In this document: positions 1-5,455 of the stretch, piece by piece
How positions within the stretch are numbered: the first letter of the stretch is position 1
Layout of the letters: every line of letters starts with the position of its first letter
IMG/VR virus record: IMGVR_UViG_3300045988_000071
Location: 1 to 5,455 of that record
Length of the DNA: 5,455 nucleotides
Strand: one strand, 5' to 3'
From: a virus
Notes under the pieces: model-generated
Seen by the model: only the letters and a program-made list of their open reading frames with translations
The model's database searches: none
Told to the model about the DNA's origin: nothing
Made by a program: the position numbers and the translations under genes

Positions 1-99
1 GCCTATCGAAGTCAAAAACAAATGGGACAACGACGTGGAAAAGTACGTCATGGCCTACGGCACAGCAGAATGGGCCGATAAAATGGGCCTGCTGAAAGA
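1..99. repeat. Terminal direct repeat, copy 1: 99 nt identical to 5357..5455, the signature of a circular 5,356-nt genome
   Basis: Base-by-base comparison by eye: gcctatcgaagtcaaaaacaaatggg...gggcctgctgaaaga occurs at both window ends with no mismatch. Confidence 0.97.
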
Positions 100-148
100 A
101 GAAAAGCCAGCTGAAAACACGACAGAGAAAAAGGAGACAGCAGAGTGA
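2..148 (+). CDS. VP3: 3' end of the internal scaffolding protein VP3 gene. It is 5'-truncated by the window start and is the same gene as 5028..5455 continued across the circular junction.
   Basis: The frame starting at base 2 reads PIEVKNKWDNDVEKYVMAYGTAEWADKMGLLKEEKPAENTTEKKETAE then TGA at 146-148. Bases 2-99 duplicate 5358-5455 in the same frame. The stop overlaps the VP1 GTG start (GTGA). Confidence 0.85.
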   Translation, partial: PIEVKNKWDNDVEKYVMAYGTAEWADKMGLLKEEKPAENTTEKKETAE

Positions 149-1797
149 ACCGCAACAGTGAATACAACTTTGCACAGAATCCACAGGTAGGAGTAAGCCG
201 AAGCAGATTCCAGCGCAACAGTGACAACAAAACCACCTTTAACACCGGCGAACTCATCCCGATTTATCTGGATGAGGTATTACCCGGAGATACGCACGAA
301 ATCGACATGGCCTGTGTCATGCGTATGGCAACACCCATCTTTCCCGTGATGGACAACGCTTTCTGCGACTTTTACTTCTTCTTCGTCCCCAATCGGCTAC
401 TCTGGGAACACTGGAAGGAGTTTATGGGGGAAAACAAGGAAACCGCATGGACGCCTAAAACAGAATACAGCATCCCGCAGGTCACAGCACCTGCAGAAGG
501 TTGGGCAGAAGGAACTTTGGCAGACTATCTTGGTCTGCCTACCAAAGTAAAGAAAATAAGCGTGAGCGCTCTGCCGGGCCGAGCCTATGGCCTTATCTAC
601 AACGAGTGGTTTCGAAACCAAAACGTCACACAGCCGACTCTCGTAGAGGTGACGGACGCGACCACGACCGGCAAAAACGACGGCAGTAATACCAACGACA
701 GCGCAATCACGTTGGCAAAGCCTCTTAAGGCGGCAAAGGTGTTCGACTACTACACCGGGGCGCTGCCAGAACCTCAGAAAGGCGAGCCAATTACAATCCC
801 GATAACGGGGAGCGCGCCAATCGGATTATATAACACCGCCACAGGAGACGTGACAACCAATTCAGCCAAGATGAAAGAAATCTTCACCGATGCAGGGCTT
901 ATCGCAACAAATGGGGCATATCAAGCGAGTTACTGGGATCCGGGCGACGGGCCAACAGCAAACAAAGGCTTAGCGGTGGGAAATACAGCCGGCAGCATCT
1001 ACAGGGGAGTAGCCCTCGGCGCAGACCTATCAAGCGTAAATGCAACAACCATCAACCAGCTGCGACAGGCATTCCAAATCCAGAAACTGTTGGAAAAGGA
1101 TGCACGAGGTGGCACGAGATACCGCGAGGTATTGCGTGAGCACTTTGGAGTCATCTCACCCGACAGCCGAATGCAAATTCCGGAGTATCTGGGCGGATAC
1201 AGGCTGCCTATCAACGTGTCACAGGTTATCCAGACCTCTTCGACCGACAACACAAGCCCGCAGGGCAACACGGCGGCGCTGAGTGTGACCACGATGAATA
1301 AACCTATGTTTACTAAGTCCTTTACGGAACACGGCTTTATCATGGGTCTAGCCGTTGTCCGTACTGACCAGACGTACCAGCAAGGTATCGACCGCATGTG
1401 GAGTCGTAAAGGCCGGTACGACTACTATTGGCCGGTACTGGCGAACATCGGCGAGCAAGCAATTCTGAACAAAGAAATCTATGCAGAAGGAAACCCAAAT
1501 GACGACATGGCATTTGGATACCAAGAAGCATGGGCCGATTACAGATACAAGCCAAGCAAAGTAACGGGCCTGTTCAGAAGCAACGCAACGCAAAGCCTCG
1601 ACGCATGGCACTATGCACAAGACTACAAATCCCTGCCATTCCTCGGAACGCAATGGATGGAGCAGAGCGACACCGAAATGAAGCGGACGTTAGCGGTACA
1701 GAACCAGCCGGACTTTATCGCTGACTTCTACTTTATGAACAAAACAACGCGATGCATGCCGGTCTACAGTATTCCGGGACTCATCGACCATCATTAA
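145..1797 (+). CDS. VP1: Major capsid protein VP1 (Microviridae F/VP1 family, gokushovirus type)
   Basis: 550-aa ORF. GTG 145 is the only start codon after the in-frame TGA at 112-114 and follows AAGGAG (131-136) with an 8-nt spacer. Recalled family motifs: SRSRF, TTFNTGELIPIYLDEVLPGDT, DYYTGALPEPQKG, TINQLRQAFQIQKLLEKDARGGTRYREVLREHFGVISPDSRMQIPEYLGG. Confidence 0.95.
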   Translation: MNRNSEYNFAQNPQVGVSRSRFQRNSDNKTTFNTGELIPIYLDEVLPGDTHEIDMACVMRMATPIFPVMDNAFCDFYFFFVPNRLLWEHWKEFMGENKETAWTPKTEYSIPQVTAPAEGWAEGTLADYLGLPTKVKKISVSALPGRAYGLIYNEWFRNQNVTQPTLVEVTDATTTGKNDGSNTNDSAITLAKPLKAAKVFDYYTGALPEPQKGEPITIPITGSAPIGLYNTATGDVTTNSAKMKEIFTDAGLIATNGAYQASYWDPGDGPTANKGLAVGNTAGSIYRGVALGADLSSVNATTINQLRQAFQIQKLLEKDARGGTRYREVLREHFGVISPDSRMQIPEYLGGYRLPINVSQVIQTSSTDNTSPQGNTAALSVTTMNKPMFTKSFTEHGFIMGLAVVRTDQTYQQGIDRMWSRKGRYDYYWPVLANIGEQAILNKEIYAEGNPNDDMAFGYQEAWADYRYKPSKVTGLFRSNATQSLDAWHYAQDYKSLPFLGTQWMEQSDTEMKRTLAVQNQPDFIADFYFMNKTTRCMPVYSIPGLIDHH

Positions 1798-1839
1798 AAC
1801 CAGCAAAATGACCAAAAAAACCATAACACAAAGGAGGAC

Positions 1840-1864
1840 GCCGGGGCAAAACCCGGCTGTTTTA
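1840..1864 (+). terminator. Candidate weak intrinsic terminator/attenuator between VP1 and VP2
   Basis: All-GC 6-bp stem gccggg (1840-1845) / cccggc (1852-1857), loop gcaaaa, followed by tgtttta (1858-1864). It lies 43 nt after the VP1 stop. Confidence 0.45.
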
Positions 1865-1868
1865 GTAT

Positions 1869-2672
1869 ATGTCAATTTTAGCAGCGTTAGCAACAGGCGC
1901 AAAATTACTGAGTGGCGTGAGCACACTCATAAACGCCGGAACGGGCATATTCAACGCACTCAAAGGCACATCCGGCAGCGGAGCAACAAGCTCAAGCGGA
2001 TACCAGACAAGCCAAGGCGCAAGCGGGTCAACAATGACCGGTGAAAGCGGCGTCAATATGGAACAAACGCAAGAGCTTGCAAAATACTTTCTTGGGCAAA
2101 GCCAGCAAGCACAGGGAATGCAGAGTCAGCAAAACAATAAGAACAGCCTCTTGGCTCTGGGCTTAAACACTCTGGGAGCTATCCAGCAGGGCGTTTATAA
2201 TCGCATCCAGCAGGATGCAGCTATGTCCTACAACTCGGCAGAGGCAGCAGCCAACAGGGCATGGCAGGAAAGGATGAGTAATACAAGTTACCAAAGAGCA
2301 ATGGCCGACATGAAAAAAGCGGGGTTGAATCCAATACTCGCATACCAGCAAGGCGGAGCAAGTACACCGGGCGGAGCACAAGGAACCATTGGACAGAGCA
2401 GCATAAGCGCGCCAAGCGTCGGAACGCAGTCATCAAGTATGCCGACGATCTCCGGATCAGTGGCAAACTACAGCAAAACCAAAGCAGAAAGCTGGTCTTG
2501 GACAGACTCGCACGGAGAGCAGCACAGCAGCGGTTACAACAGCTATCAAACGGACTTCCCGGATTTAAGTCAATGGTTAAACCAAAACAACAACAGCGGC
2601 AAACGAACCGCAACAAGTGGCAAAAGAGATAAAGAAGGATTCGGCGGAAGCAGAGGAGGCAGTTTTAAATGA
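1869..2672 (+). CDS. VP2: Minor capsid / DNA pilot protein VP2
   Basis: 267-aa ORF. The in-frame TAG at 1863-1865 makes ATG 1869 the first possible start. It has a hydrophobic Gly/Ala-rich N-terminus and Q/S/G-rich low-complexity stretches. The conserved gokushovirus VP2 core is present: [22 protein letters not shown]. Confidence 0.9.
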
Positions 2673-3691
2673 GTTGCGCAAGACCACTCATAAGGGTATA
2701 CAATCCAAATGACCACAACATAACAGGATCTATCATGACCTTAGAGACGTACCGCGAAAGAGCGCACGATCCAGCAGCAACGTATGAGAACATCGCATAC
2801 AGAACAGACGTGATGTTACTGCCATGCGGCAAATGTCTAGGCTGTAGACTCAGACAGCGGCAGGACTGGGAAACGCGAATGCTAATGGAGTCAAAAACAC
2901 TGTCGCCAGTATGGTTTTTGACACTAACATGGAGTCAAGAGTATGTGCCGGGCATGGTAAGAGCAACCGGAGAAATCATAAGAGGCGCAAAACACCAGTG
3001 GACGACCGGAGACGCGCCGGAGGTAGTACAAATCCTACTGCAAGAGGACATGGTGCGTTTTAACAAAAGACTGCGCAAAAAGCAAGAAACGTCCGATAAA
3101 TGGGGCTTAGACCTAAGATATTTTTATTGTGGCGAATACGGCGAAAACACGGGCAGACCGCATCACCACGGAATTTATTATGGGTTAGAGATTCCAGACC
3201 TCAAGAAAAAAAGGGGGGATAATCCGTACTTTGAAAGTGAAGAAATAAACAAAATCTGGGGCATGGGCAATGTCATCATTGCAGAGGCATCACCGGAAAC
3301 AATGGCTTATGTGGCAGGATACGTCACCAAAAAGACATATGGCAACGACAACAAAAGATATAGGGAGCTAGGCTTAACGCCGCCTTATTGTTGCATGTCA
3401 AGGAATCCCGGTCTAGGCTACGACTATTACACAAGCCACAAAAAACAGATGTACACAGATGATGGACTATACTTTAACGGCAAAAAAAGACCGATACCAC
3501 GATACTTTGATAAAAAGTACGAAAGTGAGCATCCGGAAGATCTGTGGGAAACGAAACGCAAAAGGCAGTCAAGCGCAATCAACGCGCTAAAGCTCAAAAT
3601 GAGCAATACAGGGCTGACCATCGAACAAGAAGCAAAGGTGGAAGAAGCAACAAAACAACAGAGGTTTAAAAAAGCTAGAGGGCTGTTATAG
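2669..3691 (+). CDS. VP4: Replication initiation protein VP4 (HUH rolling-circle endonuclease)
   Basis: 340-aa ORF. ATG 2669 overlaps the VP2 stop (ATGA) and follows GAGGAGG (2653-2659). Motifs: Cys cluster PCGKCLGCR (res 52-60), motif I FLTLT (nt 2915-2929), HUH-type [11 protein letters not shown] (HHH = nt 3161-3169), and catalytic Tyr motif [11 protein letters not shown] (Y214 nt 3308-3310, Y218 nt 3320-3322). Confidence 0.93.
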
Positions 3692-3696
3692 TGTCA

Positions 3697-3733
3697 GTGG
3701 GCCTAATCCTATCAAGAGAAGGATTAGGCCCAC
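3697..3733 (+). repeat. Perfect inverted repeat (14-bp stem, 9-nt loop) 6 nt after the VP4 stop
   Basis: gtgggcctaatcct (3697-3710), loop atcaagaga, aggattaggcccac (3720-3733). There is no U-tract downstream, so it is not a canonical intrinsic terminator. Confidence 0.9.
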
Positions 3734-3786
3734 ACCCAAGTTTCACAGCTATCCACGGCTAATTAAAAGCATCATAAAAACAAGAA

Positions 3787-3817
3787 GGGGTCTCCTGTCG
3801 CCACGGGAGACCCCTTT
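3787..3817 (+). terminator. Rho-independent-type terminator candidate at the end of the VP1-VP2-VP4 transcription unit
   Basis: ggggtctcctg (3787-3797) pairs with cgggagacccc (3804-3814): 11 bp including one G-T wobble, loop tcgcca. TTT follows at 3815-3817, and flanking AA/TT can extend the stem. Confidence 0.6.
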
Positions 3818-3877
3818 CGTATACGCACCTCGTAGGGGCTACCGAGGTACGAGGCAGATTATAGGTTCAATCACGCT

Positions 3878-3916
3878 CACGCGCACGCACGCGCGAAACG
3901 CGCACGCACGCGCGTG
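3878..3916. repeat. Duplicated 17-mer acgcgcacgcacgcgcg (3879-3895 and 3898-3914), alternating pyrimidine-purine, also foldable as a 39-nt quasi-palindrome
   Basis: Two exact copies separated by aa. Pairing i with 7794-i gives 7 bp + 2x2 A/C mismatch + 2 bp + 2x2 A/C mismatch + 5 bp around an aaa loop. The palindrome cacgcgcgtg lies at 3907-3916. Confidence 0.9.
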
Positions 3917-3971
3917 TATTCACAAACATCATCTATTGTATATAACTTGTTGTAGCAGTAGTAGTAGGCAC

Positions 3972-4148
3972 TGTGGAAAAGTTGAAAACGATAATAATTC
4001 TTCGTTATCACGTGAAAACTAAGGATTATTCGCAGTTGAAAACTTTGTTGAAAACTCGTTGAAATGTTGAAAGTCTAGCAATATGCACAAAAGTCTTTGT
4101 GCAACATTTTGTGGAAAACCTGTTGAAAGTGTTGAAAGTGTTGAAAAC
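3972..4148 (+). repeat. Iteron-like array of about 11 same-orientation GT(T/G)GAAA(N)(N) 9-mers
   Basis: Copies start at 3973 (gtggaaaag), 3981, 4035, 4047 (gttgaaaac), 4058 (gttgaaatg), 4066 (gttgaaagt), 4111 (gtggaaaac), 4122, 4131 (gttgaaagt) and 4140 (gttgaaaac). A degenerate copy cgtgaaaac is at 4011. Copies at 4122-4148 are three perfectly tandem 9-mers. Confidence 0.85.
4084..4103. repeat. Inverted repeat (8-bp stem, 4-nt loop) centred between the two four-copy iteron clusters
   Basis: tgcacaaa (4084-4091), loop agtc, tttgtgca (4096-4103). Cluster 4035-4074 ends 9 nt upstream (gap 4075-4083) and cluster 4111-4148 starts 7 nt downstream (gap 4104-4110). Confidence 0.8.
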
Positions 4149-4186
4149 TATTAAAGGCCGTCCGGCGAGCGAAACCGGAAAGTCAC

Positions 4187-4226
4187 GTCATGCTCTTCGC
4201 ACGGCGCACCGCGCCTAGCGCATGAC
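4187..4226. repeat. GC-rich nested hairpin (7-bp outer stem, 5-bp inner GC stem)
   Basis: Outer stem gtcatgc (4187-4193) / gcatgac (4220-4226). Inner stem ggcgc (4203-4207) / gcgcc (4211-4215), loop acc. A further small hairpin tccgg (4161-4165) / ccgga (4175-4179) lies just upstream. Confidence 0.6.
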
Positions 4227-4231
4227 CTATC

Positions 4232-4251
4232 AAAAAACTGTAAAAAACTGT
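4232..4251 (+). repeat. Tandem 10-mer aaaaaactgt x2 (helically phased A6 tracts) directly abutting the promoter -35
   Basis: Exact copies at 4232-4241 and 4242-4251, with a 10-nt period. Confidence 0.9.
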
Positions 4252-4279
4252 TAACAATCCCCAAAAAATATGGCATAAT
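4251..4279 (+). promoter_or_regulatory. Sigma70-type promoter with extended -10, candidate main promoter for the small-gene cassette and capsid genes
   Basis: -35 TTAACA (4251-4256), 17-nt spacer, TGg extended element (4271-4273), -10 CATAAT (4274-4279). A-tract UP-like sequence lies upstream. The first gene starts at 4374 with AAGGAG at 4359-4364. Confidence 0.55.
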
Positions 4280-4373
4280 TAAGTAAACCAAAGAAAGGAA
4301 GGCAGCAAAAAAGAATTAAAAAAGCCGATGAAGACTGGGAAGACTGCGAAACAATATAAAGGAGACAAAAACA

Positions 4374-4580
4374 ATGGACAACCGCGCATACTACGAGCTA
4401 TACAAAGGATACAGAGGACCAAAAACAGAGGATGAATATGAATACACCATCAAAAAGCTTTACAGACAGCTCAAAAAAACGTATACTGTAGATGAAGCGA
4501 AAGCCATCATAGACGAAATATACAAATACAAAAACCAAAAGGCAGAAATGGAGCTGAACAAATGGCAATCATCGGTTTGA
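4374..4580 (+). CDS. Hypothetical 68-aa protein, Tyr/Lys/Glu-rich, with no family I recognise
   Basis: ORF in track. AAGGAG (4359-4364) lies 9 nt before the ATG. It is the first ORF downstream of the predicted promoter and is on the same strand as all other genes. About 10 Tyr in 68 residues, and no hydrophobic segment. Confidence 0.6.
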   Translation: MDNRAYYELYKGYRGPKTEDEYEYTIKKLYRQLKKTYTVDEAKAIIDEIYKYKNQKAEMELNKWQSSV

Positions 4581-4705
4581 AGGAAGTCAAGAACGCCATC
4601 AAAATCATGATGGAGATCCTGGAAAAGCTGGATGCAATTTACCACGCACTACACGACAAGGAGGACGAAAGCAATGGCAAAACGTACAAAGATGACCAGC
4701 AGTAA
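4562..4705 (+). CDS. Hypothetical 47-aa protein (MAIIGLKEVKNAIKIMMEILEKLDAIYHALHDKEDESNGKTYKDDQQ), not in the ORF track
   Basis: ATG 4562 is preceded by GGAG (4550-4553) with an 8-nt spacer. It overlaps the upstream ORF by 19 nt and the downstream VP8-like ORF by 32 nt, filling the only coding gap in the cassette. Translated by hand, TAA at 4703-4705. Confidence 0.35.
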   Translation: MAIIGLKEVKNAIKIMMEILEKLDAIYHALHDKEDESNGKTYKDDQQ

Positions 4706-4793
4706 GGACAAAAAAATCTTTACCCAGACGGCGAAGAAAACCAAGGCCGTCAACGTAAGTCCAAAGAACATGAGAGGAGGCACCAGACTGTAA
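4674..4793 (+). CDS. VP8: Small basic DNA-binding/packaging protein (gokushovirus ORF8/VP8-like, functional analogue of phiX174 J), not in the ORF track
   Basis: Hand translation: MAKRTKMTSSKDKKIFTQTAKKTKAVNVSPKNMRGGTRL (39 aa, 12 K/R). AAGGAGG (4658-4664) lies 9 nt upstream. The C-terminal MRGGxRL and N-terminal basic KxxKxIFxxTA pattern match my recollection of this family. The stop overlaps the next start (TAATG). Confidence 0.75.
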   Translation: MAKRTKMTSSKDKKIFTQTAKKTKAVNVSPKNMRGGTRL

Positions 4794-5035
4794 TGCTCAA
4801 ACGTTATTATGCAATCTACGACAAAGTCGCCAAGACCTGCAGCGGACTCTTTGAACAGCAGAACGACGCAGTCGCAAGCAGACTCTTTGAGAGCCAGCAG
4901 AAGAACAAAGACAGCTTTATCAGTGTAAAGCCGGAGGACTTCCAGCTACACTACATCTGCACCATGGAGGACGAAACCGGCCAGATTATCGATAACACCA
5001 AAATGCTGGTGTGTGAGGGCAAGCCCAATGAGTGA
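4793..5035 (+). CDS. VP5: VP5-like non-structural protein (gokushovirus ORF5 family)
   Basis: 80-aa ORF. GAGGAGG (4774-4780) lies upstream. Pattern Y.IYD.K...... LF...ND..A.R.F ... KPEDF.L..I...DE.TG resembles Chlamydia-phage/gokushovirus VP5 as I recall it. It sits immediately upstream of VP3, as in gokushoviruses. Confidence 0.75.
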   Translation: MLKRYYAIYDKVAKTCSGLFEQQNDAVASRLFESQQKNKDSFISVKPEDFQLHYICTMEDETGQIIDNTKMLVCEGKPNE

Positions 5036-5455
5036 ATTTAGAAGCGCATACAGCGGCCACGCGAGACATACGAGTCCGACCGGGAACGGACACGAACCCG
5101 AATACGAGTACAAAGTAACCGAAACCGGCAGAGAGTTGATGAAAACCGGCGAAACAGACGTCTATGCACTCATCCAGAGCCGTCTCGATGAGACCAAAAT
5201 CGAAAACATCATCAAAAGAGCAACCTACGATCCGACGGCGCTGGGCGGCCAGGAATGGCAGAACAGTGCACAGATGGTGGACATCACCGACGTGCCGACG
5301 GACTACCACACATGGTACAACCGCATAGAGGACGCAAAGAAGCAGTTCGAAGCACTGCCTATCGAAGTCAAAAACAAATGGGACAACGACGTGGAAAAGT
5401 ACGTCATGGCCTACGGCACAGCAGAATGGGCCGATAAAATGGGCCTGCTGAAAGA
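5028..5455 (+). CDS. VP3: Internal scaffolding protein VP3, 3'-open at the window end. The full gene is 5028..5356 + 1..148 on the circle, 158 aa. Not in the ORF track.
   Basis: ATG 5028 (inside aatgagtga, overlapping the VP5 stop) follows GAGGG (5015-5019). The hand-translated frame has no stop to the window end: MSEFRSAYSGHARH...DYHTWYNRIEDAKKQFEALPIEVKNKWDNDVEKYV...KMGLLK. The N-terminal M.FRSAYS and C-terminal F..LP..V...W.ND....(GLL) patterns match gokushovirus VP3. Confidence 0.85.
   Translation, partial: MSEFRSAYSGHARHTSPTGNGHEPEYEYKVTETGRELMKTGETDVYALIQSRLDETKIENIIKRATYDPTALGGQEWQNSAQMVDITDVPTDYHTWYNRIEDAKKQFEALPIEVKNKWDNDVEKYVMAYGTAEWADKMGLLK
5357..5455. repeat. Terminal direct repeat, copy 2 (identical to 1..99)
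   Basis: Same comparison as copy 1. The repeat lies inside the VP3 coding sequence, so it is an assembly or circular-permutation overlap, not a biological repeat. Confidence 0.97.

Follow-up and report, generated by a model that had tools for sequence, protein, structure and literature searches.

The 5,455-nucleotide virus record IMGVR_UViG_3300045988_000071 of the IMG/VR database (positions 1 to 5,455, one strand; the whole stretch is called the window below) is the genome of a circular gokushovirus, a single-stranded DNA (ssDNA) phage of the Microviridae, and its non-coding region contains a module at 3916-4147 that we think is fairly probably a compact mimic of a bacterial chromosomal origin (oriC), which would bind the host's DnaA protein on the double-stranded replicative form (RF) of the phage genome. 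Its predicted anatomy is a run of ten co-oriented DnaA boxes, separated by a 4-nt GC gap from five DnaA-trios, beyond which lies an AT-rich edge, an arrangement that reads as the basal unwinding system (BUS) of a Firmicute oriC written in a Ruminococcus dialect (box TGTTGAAAA as well as TGTGGAAAA), and the clade of gut ssDNA phages in which it is found probably carries it to recruit the host initiator. What the sequences show is that the module follows the grammar of such an origin, has been conserved over deep divergence, matches Ruminococcus oriC and occurs in either orientation relative to the genes; from these observations we infer DnaA binding, unwinding of the DNA and some use of the opening.

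Ten phased, co-oriented sites

Ten co-oriented (T)GT(T/G)GAAA sites lie at 3972-4147 in the layout 2 + 4 + palindrome + 4, all of them on the + strand. The motifs start at 3973 and 3981, at 4035, 4047, 4058 and 4066 (spacing 12/11/8) and at 4111, 4122, 4131 and 4140 (spacing 11/9/9). The 9-mers are, in order, TGTGGAAAA and AGTTGAAAA in a first pair (3972-3988); AGTTGAAAA, TGTTGAAAA, CGTTGAAAT and TGTTGAAAG in a left block of four DnaA-box-like sites (4034-4073); and TGTGGAAAA, TGTTGAAAG, TGTTGAAAG and TGTTGAAAA in a right block of four (4110-4147), in which the last three stand head to tail at 9 bp. The first pair and the left block are separated by a spacer (3989-4033) of fixed length and variable sequence that holds a degenerate copy, cGTGAAAAc, at 4011-4019. 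Between the two blocks is a central spacer (4074-4109) with an 8-bp-stem palindrome, TGCACAAA-agtc-TTTGTGCA, at 4084-4103 and a box-like TGTGCAACA at 4098-4106.

The heptamer GTTGAAA occurs eight times in the window, always on the + strand and always within 3981-4146, where 0.93 copies are expected from dinucleotide shuffles and none of 200 shuffles attains eight. Twelve copies of the wider motif GTKGAAA are present, ten of them within the array; the remaining two, GTGGAAA at 35 and 5391, represent a single site, since bases 1-99 of the record are repeated at its end as 5357-5455. The minus strand of the genome has no copy of the array motif. The ten starts are phased at about 10.6 bp with a resultant length of 0.76, a value matched by 142 of 5000 random arrays. 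The original prediction, made by reading the letters of the window, had listed eight GTTGAAA, two GTGGAAA and one degenerate copy in a single orientation, no exact GTTGAAA elsewhere, and the above spacings around the palindrome, and in all of these it was accurate. Its proposal of a cooperative protein-binding array of the replication-origin type is backed by the helical phasing, and its remark that such an array is undescribed for Microviridae agrees with our full-text literature searches (Microviridae and gokushoviruses with DnaA, origins or non-coding repeats), which found no description of the element.

A DnaA-trio unit beside the first pair of boxes

What the original prediction overlooked is a complete unit of DnaA-trios, GC gap and box pair at 3953-3988, directly beside an AT-rich edge. 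The edge (3916-3952) is a candidate unwinding region with 73% A+T, compared with 52% for the genome, and it ends in the conserved sequence TATATAACTTGTTG (3939-3952). It is followed on the + strand by the trio block TAG CAG TAG TAG TAG (3953-3967), which amounts to 3'-GAT-5' repeats on this strand, by the 4-nt GC-rich gap GCAC (3968-3971), and by a box pair (3972-3988) made up of a proximal TGTGGAAAA (3972-3980) and a distal AGTTGAAAA (3980-3988) with a start-to-start offset of 8 nt. The best-conserved block of the whole module, 3939-3989, thus reads TATATAACTTGTTG-TAG-CAG-TAG-TAG-TAG-GCAC-TGTGGAAAA-GTTGAAAAC.

In a BUS, one DnaA box or two in the same orientation are separated by a usually GC-rich gap of about 4 bp from at least three DnaA-trios, and an AT-rich region follows (PMC8287927, PMC6669920), where a trio is 3'-GAT-5' with an invariant central A (for the definitions of trios and of the DnaD recognition element, see PMC8287927, PMC6669920 and PMC10201434). 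In Table S1 of PMC8287927, where the trio strand is written 3' to 5', the unit of B. subtilis is AATAGGTGT TTAGGTGT CCGG GATGATAATGAAGATGAT and that of S. aureus is AATAGGTGG TTAGGTGT CGTG GATGATGATAATGAT. Positions 3953-3988 of the window, written in the same direction, are AAAAGTTGA AAAGGTGT CACG GATGATGATGACGAT, so that in all three a 9-mer and an 8-mer box are followed by a 4-nt GC gap and then by GAT repeats, in the same strand relation. The complement of the trio block, (CTA)n, automatically gives TnnT pairs of the DnaD recognition element type.

Each part was also compared with the published BUS rules. These take as a box a sequence with at most two mismatches to the (species) consensus that lies 0-16 bp from the trios; the proximal TGTGGAAAA has no mismatch to TTWTNCACA and one to TTATCCACA, and it lies 4 nt from the trios. 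A second box is to be co-oriented, with at most four mismatches and a gap of 0-3 bp, as is found for the distal AGTTGAAAA, whose 12-nt spacer to the trios has the B. subtilis value. For the trios, an uninterrupted run of three or more trinucleotides, each with A in the middle, is required on the strand carrying 5'-TGTGGATAA-3', and such a run is present at 3953-3967, the strand relation having been checked against Table S1 and the C. difficile trio sequence; the GCAC gap and the AT-rich DNA beyond the trios supply the remaining parts. A strict BUS regular expression has a single match in the genome, at 3959. It matches in 31 of 3000 simulated genomes (about 1%), and 39 related gokushovirus genomes without the array gave no match at all. 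When the published BUS table was searched by string for an identical copy of the phage unit among host origins, none was found.

Conservation among gut gokushoviruses

Among GenBank phages, about 3932-4148 is the sole part of the genome that still matches many gut gokushoviruses at the DNA level (about 80% identity), and these come from human, pig, monkey and dog. Further genomes were gathered from IMG/VR in four ways, by a VP4 peptide search, by patterns for the upstream block and for the left four-site block, and with a profile for VP1. More than 110 genomes have their sites at +27, +35, +89, +101, +112 and +120 from a fixed point, and the right-hand sites at +164/165, +175/176, +184/185 and +193/194, in every case within 1 nt, and a minority variant has a shorter central spacer. 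Column by column, the motif cores are conserved at 90-100% and the spacers at 30-60%. The first spacer measures 46-47 nt between motif cores in 77 of 78 distinct family sequences while its sequence diverges, and no consistent structure was found in it across the family, any structure being weak. The central spacer is 36-38 nt long (27 in the one variant) and likewise free in sequence. Its palindrome is TGCACAAA/TTTGTGCA in the subfamily of the window, TTCGTCA/TGACGAA in another and absent from a third, with the spacer equal in length, so the palindrome is no fixed component of the design; a conserved nick-site hairpin at this place was considered and rejected, since the identity and the place of the palindrome vary between subfamilies.

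The upstream block is kept in the same manner. TAG stands at trios 1-3 and 5 in about 100 of the 123 distinct sequences of the family, and trio 4 is free; the trio block is still found in genomes that were collected through the left box block alone. The gaps (GGAG, GGGC, GCAC, GCAA) are G-rich and nearly always 4 nt long, and the 20 nt beyond the trio block average 79% A+T. In the AT-rich edge the sequence AACTTGTTG is kept in about 85-100 of the 123 sequences and is not accounted for by the BUS rules.

The module-bearing genomes have only 31-48% identity to the window in VP4 and 42-55% in VP1, so a non-coding element is far better conserved here than the proteins. The original prediction had suggested looking for the motif in related genomes and had named a lack of conservation as grounds for giving the array up; instead, its motif, number and spacing are kept. 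Nothing comparable to the module is present in Chp2, phiMH2K or SpV4.

The closest full-length GenBank relative, KT264799 (locus L010, KT264799.1 3472-4047), keeps the AT-rich edge, the trios and the first box pair, and its other eight boxes are replaced by unrelated DNA that bears an open reading frame (ORF). From this pattern of retention the BUS core looks to be the indispensable part.

Box identity and bacterial origins

The sites of the family read TGT[T/G]GA[A/T]AN, and among about 1000 of them position 4 is practically never C or A (one TGTAGAAAA was seen). The G-type box TGTGGAAAA, whose reverse complement is TTTTCCACA, agrees with the classical TTWTNCACA, and the trio-proximal site is mostly of this type across the family; in 20 relatives the second site of the left block (+101) is TGTGGATAA, the perfect E. 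coli-type consensus. The T-type box TGTTGAAAA, that is TTTTCAACA, is commoner and is one position off the classical box. The BUS table of PMC8287927 gives the T-type box as "standard" for C. pneumoniae AR39 and a related TTATCAACA for Borrelia, predicts the oriC BUS of Ruminococcus albus 7 as TGTTGAAAA-ACC-TGTTGAAAA, and has related box forms for Ruminiclostridium and Oscillibacter.

We therefore compared the module with six dnaA-dnaN intergenic regions as real origins, their flanking genes being identified by Pfam or from the gene tables of the loci. Two are in chromosomal contigs (L483, L451) from a metagenome scan with the R. albus 21-mer, whose matches fall in the dnaA-dnaN intergenic region; Pfam confirms DnaA, DnaN and RecF, with recF adjoining dnaN in L483, and the L483 DnaA is 93% identical to a "Ruminococcus sp." DnaA, its other named matches being Ruminococcus, Oscillospiraceae and Hominimerdicola. 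DnaA homologues led to four more loci, including one of Ruminococcus sp. Marseille-P6503. Read on the strand that corresponds to the phage + strand, all six origins have AT-rich DNA, (TAG)2-5, a gap of 0-4 nt and then TGTTGATAA, TGTTGATTT or similar, and after these first boxes come several further co-oriented T-type boxes. There are 4-8 boxes per origin intergenic region, compared with 0-5 per strand in the flanking 4-13 kb. The dnaA-proximal triple of Ruminococcus oriC is TGTTGAAAA-nnn-TGTTGAAnn-TGTTGAAAA, for example TGTTGAAAA-cta-TGTTGAATt-TGTTGAAAA, and the right block of the phage, TGTGGAAAA-cc-TGTTGAAAG-TGTTGAAAG-TGTTGAAAA, equals the oriC triple at 20 of 21 bases. Judged by its sequence, the phage module would be a compressed version of the Ruminococcus oriC architecture.

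The right block also resembles arrays in Lachnospiraceae chromosomes. In four loci from Lachnospiraceae and an unclassified bacterium (L050, L057, L073, L094), three to four head-to-tail TGTGGAAAn units of 9 bp, plus TGTGGATAA pairs, are located between murC and a gene with a DnaB_2 domain (helicase-loader family). These arrays are probably a chromosomal DnaA-box cluster that regulates replication genes.

Orientation and history of the module

Of 115 genomes, 27 have the entire module in reverse orientation to VP1 and VP4. They form one sub-clade and three scattered cases (loci L232, L190, L241 and others; L188, L237 and L272), and in the inverted sub-clade it lies upstream of VP4 and not downstream. 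The excess of A over T on the coding strand (+0.50 at four-fold sites) is equal in both orientation groups. Because the inversion leaves the skew unchanged, the module probably works on the duplex RF, and this tends to argue against a nick site of the packaged strand in the conserved block, with the proviso that the skew could also stem from coding constraints. Over the window and the related loci L184-L302, the AT skew of the coding strand is about +0.5 at four-fold sites of VP1 and +0.34 genome-wide. The viral strand of phiX174 is T-rich, the opposite of the coding-strand skew in these gokushoviruses.

In a neighbour-joining tree of VP4 the module-bearing genomes form a single group that requires one gain (one Fitch change), and no close VP4 pair differs in the presence of the module. 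Probably, then, a single acquisition took place, and the module has been retained over very deep divergence since. An earlier idea drawn from its patchy distribution, that it is a mobile cassette independent of VP4, was withdrawn, since the module-bearers are monophyletic in this tree.

Proposed mechanism and its uses

In the sequence of events that we propose, host DnaA-ATP would bind the boxes on the double-stranded RF through its domain IV and oligomerise along the phased, co-oriented sites; from the trio-proximal pair at 3972-3988 it would then extend onto the TAG-repeat strand and open the AT-rich DNA at about 3916-3952. Three uses of such an opening can be imagined. The one we rank as most likely is loading of the host helicase, which would lead to theta-type, minichromosome-like replication or carriage independent of VP4. 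A close second is presentation of ssDNA to the VP4 nuclease at the conserved AACTTGTTG, which recalls the CAACTTG|A nick site of phiX174. The last is titration of DnaA, as an unavoidable side effect or as the main purpose, and titration by itself fits poorly because the trios are strongly conserved and KT264799 retains them. That the module is a working miniature oriC, so that a DnaA-opened RF persists like a minichromosome or rolling-circle initiation is made dependent on DnaA, is a possibility that we hold only tentatively and with less assurance than the binding of DnaA itself.

Several points weigh against an oriC mimic. The support is sequence grammar throughout, and the BUS pattern was recognised post hoc, with a chance rate of about 1% for the minimal pattern in simulation. 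The match of the box dialect to Ruminococcus bears on a host that is itself only predicted. Microviruses already own a rolling-circle system, and related gokushoviruses, Chp2, phiMH2K and SpV4 among them, manage without the module. The commonest box, the T-type TGTTGAAAA, departs from the E. coli consensus at C6, a base that is thought to be read by E. coli DnaA, and its assignment as a Ruminococcus DnaA box is a predicted one, resting on its location in oriC and on prediction of the DoriC type. In addition, AACTTGTTG does not belong to the BUS and does not occur in the Ruminococcus oriCs examined, and the phage therefore adds something of its own. Finally, the module-bearers are a single VP4 clade, in which co-evolution with VP4 or with the small protein orf47 (below) is inseparable from vertical inheritance.

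Alternative explanations

The original prediction had named VP4 and the orphan small proteins, beside a host protein, as candidate binders of the array. The most serious rival, which we nevertheless regard as unlikely, takes up the first of these: the 9-mers would be iterons of VP4, TATATAACTTG|TTG would be the plus-strand nick site, the module would be the rolling-circle replication origin of the phage, and the likeness to DnaA sites would be coincidental or secondary. In its favour, AACTTG matches the nick-proximal heptamer of the phiX174 origin, CAACTTG|ATATTAATAAC; AACTTGTTG is conserved outside the BUS rules; the module-bearers are monophyletic in the very tree of VP4; KT264799 retains the AACTTGTTG-side block together with the first motif pair; HUH initiators of parvoviruses, geminiviruses and rolling-circle plasmids use tandem repeats beside the nick site; and a GTGGAAAAG array stands upstream of a Rep_OBD + SF3 Rep gene in another element (L085, below). 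Iterons normally co-vary with their Rep, however, and the motif is unchanged (TGT[T/G]GAWA) at VP4 identities down to 31%. Nor are the repeats private to these phages, as the same T/G mixture is found in Ruminococcus oriC, in Clostridia chromosomes and in double-stranded DNA (dsDNA) phages without VP4; the motif reads as a DnaA box, and the occurrence of identical 9-mer arrays in dsDNA phages and bacterial chromosomes favours a host factor over VP4 and the orphan small proteins. A phiX174-type nick site should lie on the coding strand in every genome, and in the 27 inverted genomes it would fall on the non-coding strand with the skew unchanged (packaging polarity being taken here from skew only). 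No AACTTG-type element is shared by related genomes that lack the module, whose conserved 10-mers all fall within the coding sequence of VP1. If the sites belonged to VP4, moreover, the precise agreement with the BUS layout would have to be put down to chance. Direct repeats with helical phasing beside AT-rich DNA are present, but they are common to iteron origins and oriC and do not discriminate between them.

Alternatively, the module might be nothing but a DnaA sponge like E. coli datA or the clusters of B. subtilis, an explanation that we consider improbable. The high-copy RF would then soak up DnaA with no origin firing, and the effect, equally improbable in our estimate, would be to block initiation on the host chromosome or to reprogramme DnaA-regulated genes. 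Ten boxes per genome at high copy number would indeed titrate DnaA, chromosomal clusters of equal packing exist away from origins (those between murC and DnaB_2, and others next to a tRNA gene), and independence of orientation is compatible with such a role. The parts that are best conserved, however, are the trios, the 4-nt gap and the AT-rich edge, which a sponge could do without; in KT264799 the unwinding core survives and eight of ten boxes are gone, the opposite of what a sponge predicts; and all boxes point toward the trios, as they do in real oriCs. We give still less credence to the idea that the array consists of sites for another protein, such as orf47, the 68-aa protein, VP5 or a host regulator like Spo0A, that control the promoter at 4251-4279 or packaging. 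The 47-aa micro-protein orf47 (4562-4705, + strand; near-invariant core ILEKLDEIYHAL) does co-occur with the module, having tblastn matches in 81 of 116 module-bearing genomes and in 0 of 37 related genomes without it; its median identity is 67%, compared with 45% for VP4, and it has no Pfam or PHROG family. This is association only: orf47 may work together with the module or may simply mark the clade. The promoter is a good one of the sigma-70 type about 100 nt downstream of the array, and TGTTGAA is one base off the 0A box, TGTCGAA. On the other hand, arrays that are inverted or relocated have lost their place upstream of these genes, orf47 forms a helix of 33-47 aa and 35 module-bearing genomes do without it, genomes that lack the module also encode VP5 and the VP8-like protein, and the trios are explained by none of these candidates; the Spo0A box in particular was rejected because motif position 4 is never C in the roughly 1000 sites. 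That the array is a functionless low-complexity expansion, a structured RNA or a coding repeat is scarcely credible. The last three copies are perfectly tandem, which is what an expansion would give, but the freely varying array that such an origin implies is not what the family contains, as site positions are held within 1 nt over deep divergence in more than 110 genomes while the spacers diverge. Coding and RNA readings were discarded, since spacings of 12/11/8 and 11/9/9 keep no frame, no + strand ORF of at least 40 aa covers the array and Rfam gives no match at E <= 1 for the array region, which moreover lies between a terminator-like hairpin and a promoter.

Relation to known systems

Of the systems known to us, the Firmicute oriC BUS (incC of B. 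subtilis; the dnaA-dnaN origin of Ruminococcus) is the one the module most fully recalls, sharing the box pair with its 8-nt offset, the 4-nt GC gap, at least three trios and AT-rich DNA, as well as further co-oriented boxes upstream, the Ruminococcus T-type dialect with its 12 + 9-bp triples, and a total of about 230-250 bp, the size of a minimal oriC. It differs in being part of a 5.4-kb ssDNA phage with an HUH rolling-circle initiator and not beside dnaA/dnaN, in its denser box packing (8-9 bp) and in having AACTTGTTG as an additional conserved sequence on the far side of the trios; of the two boxes in the pair, the phage has the stronger one next to the trios and B. subtilis oriC has it in the distal position. 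E. coli datA and the DnaA-box clusters of B. subtilis are likewise dense groups of boxes off oriC that bind many DnaA molecules, but they are without the oriented unit of trios, GC gap and AT-rich DNA that is the best-conserved part of the phage module. Iteron origins (pSC101, P1 oriR, F, R6K, RK2) also have phased direct repeats beside AT-rich DNA, and DnaA helps in their opening; their iterons, however, are 17-22 bp long and bind a co-varying plasmid Rep, with one to few DnaA boxes, whereas the phage repeats are themselves predicted DnaA boxes and the phage has no theta-type Rep gene.

Among ssDNA replicons, the 30-bp origin of phiX174 belongs to the same family with a homologous initiator and has the hexamer AACTTG by an AT-rich stretch, but it is a single site without repeats, DnaA boxes or trios that lies inside the Rep gene (gene A) and always on the viral strand, whereas the gokushovirus module is intergenic and invertible. 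In CRESS-DNA virus, geminivirus and parvovirus origins, short direct repeats similarly flank a small palindrome in a Rep-encoding ssDNA virus; the phage palindrome, in contrast, is not conserved between subfamilies, and the phage repeats do not co-vary with Rep and match the site of a host initiator. The A-site of the ABC primosome (R6K; the single-strand initiation site, ssi, of pBR322) is another case of a single-stranded replicon using DnaA, but it needs a hairpin-paired box, while the phage boxes are direct repeats without a complementary copy in the genome and the module occurs on either strand.

As far as can be told, then, the oriC-type DnaA unwinding unit is already well known, and what is new is its presence as a conserved, invertible module in a clade of rolling-circle ssDNA phages, and likewise the prediction of a host from it. 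Microviridae are among the most abundant gut phages, and hardly anything is known of which bacteria the gut gokushoviruses infect, where their replication starts or how they live. If the module is indeed an origin that depends on DnaA, this would be, to our knowledge, the first ssDNA rolling-circle phage with a chromosomal-type origin and DnaA-trios and without a theta initiator of its own. It would tie phage replication to the initiation licence of the host, and it would offer a concrete mechanism for plasmid-like persistence of a "lytic" microvirus or for its coupling to the host cell cycle. The match of the box and trio dialect to bacterial oriCs would be a sequence-based predictor of hosts (here, Ruminococcus-type Clostridia), and the module would be a natural minimal BUS of about 230 bp for studies of DnaA unwinding in Clostridia that are hard to work with.

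Genome context of the module

The unit length of the circular genome is 5356 nt, the 99-nt terminal redundancy reflecting a circle cut inside VP3 (a unit length of 5358 was used in part of the computations, with negligible effect). Every gene is on the + strand: VP1 (145-1797; Pfam Phage_F), VP2 (1869-2672) and VP4/Rep (2669-3691; PF23343, PHROG 942), with the small ORFs, VP5 and VP3 coming after the non-coding stretch. This stretch of 682 nt (3692-4373) follows VP4 directly and contains the array, which is flanked by the terminator-like hairpin (3785-3816) and by the region's best sigma-70-type promoter (4251-4279).

Three hairpins surround the module. One, with a perfect 14-bp stem, is found at 3697-3733 immediately after the VP4 stop codon; the terminator-like one at 3785-3816 has a GC stem followed by a short T-run (TTT); and a GC-rich one at 4187-4226, before the promoter, is kept in many relatives with a folding z-score of only -1.5. 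Any of the three could be a candidate priming signal for the complementary strand. Just upstream of the AT-rich edge, at 3879-3914, are two exact 17-nt copies of ACGCGCACGCACGCGCG, a strictly alternating purine/pyrimidine sequence that is predicted to be prone to form Z-DNA. Similar CG/CA tracts are present in many relatives, and none was seen in a subgroup that has about 72 nt from the VP4 stop to the module.

Similar arrays in other genomes

When the loose pattern GTKGAAANNGTKGAAANNGTKGAAA was scanned over bacterial genomes, most matches were coding or simple repeats, such as one in a gene for an NVEN-repeat protein (L033), and no gokushovirus prophage was found. Two Ruminococcus sp. contigs from metagenome-assembled genomes (MAGs; L078, L092) have a GTKGAAA triple in a seemingly coding stretch that by eye reads ...DVESVESVEN.... 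With L033, these cases mean that the bare tandem pattern arises in coding repeats too.

In contigs of dsDNA phages from IMG/VR (17-64 kb; L309/L318/L332, L310/L324, L313, L320 and L306/L323) there are triples like GTTGAAAACTCTGTGGAAAAGCTGTTGAAAAC with 12-nt spacing. A T/G-mixed triple adjoins a gene with a Lin1244_N domain (replication module) in L310 and L324, which is the one informative neighbour among the genes beside these triples, and in L309, L318 and L332 the triple is near an integrase gene and GGTATCAATTGATACC operators. In a Clostridia MAG (L085, 3640-3800), GTGGAAAAG arrays lie directly upstream of a gene for a plasmid- or CRESS-like initiator with Rep_OBD and superfamily 3 (SF3) helicase domains, and this is apparently a second rolling-circle-type element with DnaA-box-like repeats. 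Finally, five chromosomal contigs from the human gut (L411, L415, L425, L441, L442) have a conserved TGTTGAAAAACCTGTTGAAAATGTTGATAA triple beside a tRNA gene and away from dnaA; the gene on the other side of this triple is, from a reading of its sequence by eye, presumably JAB/RadC-like.

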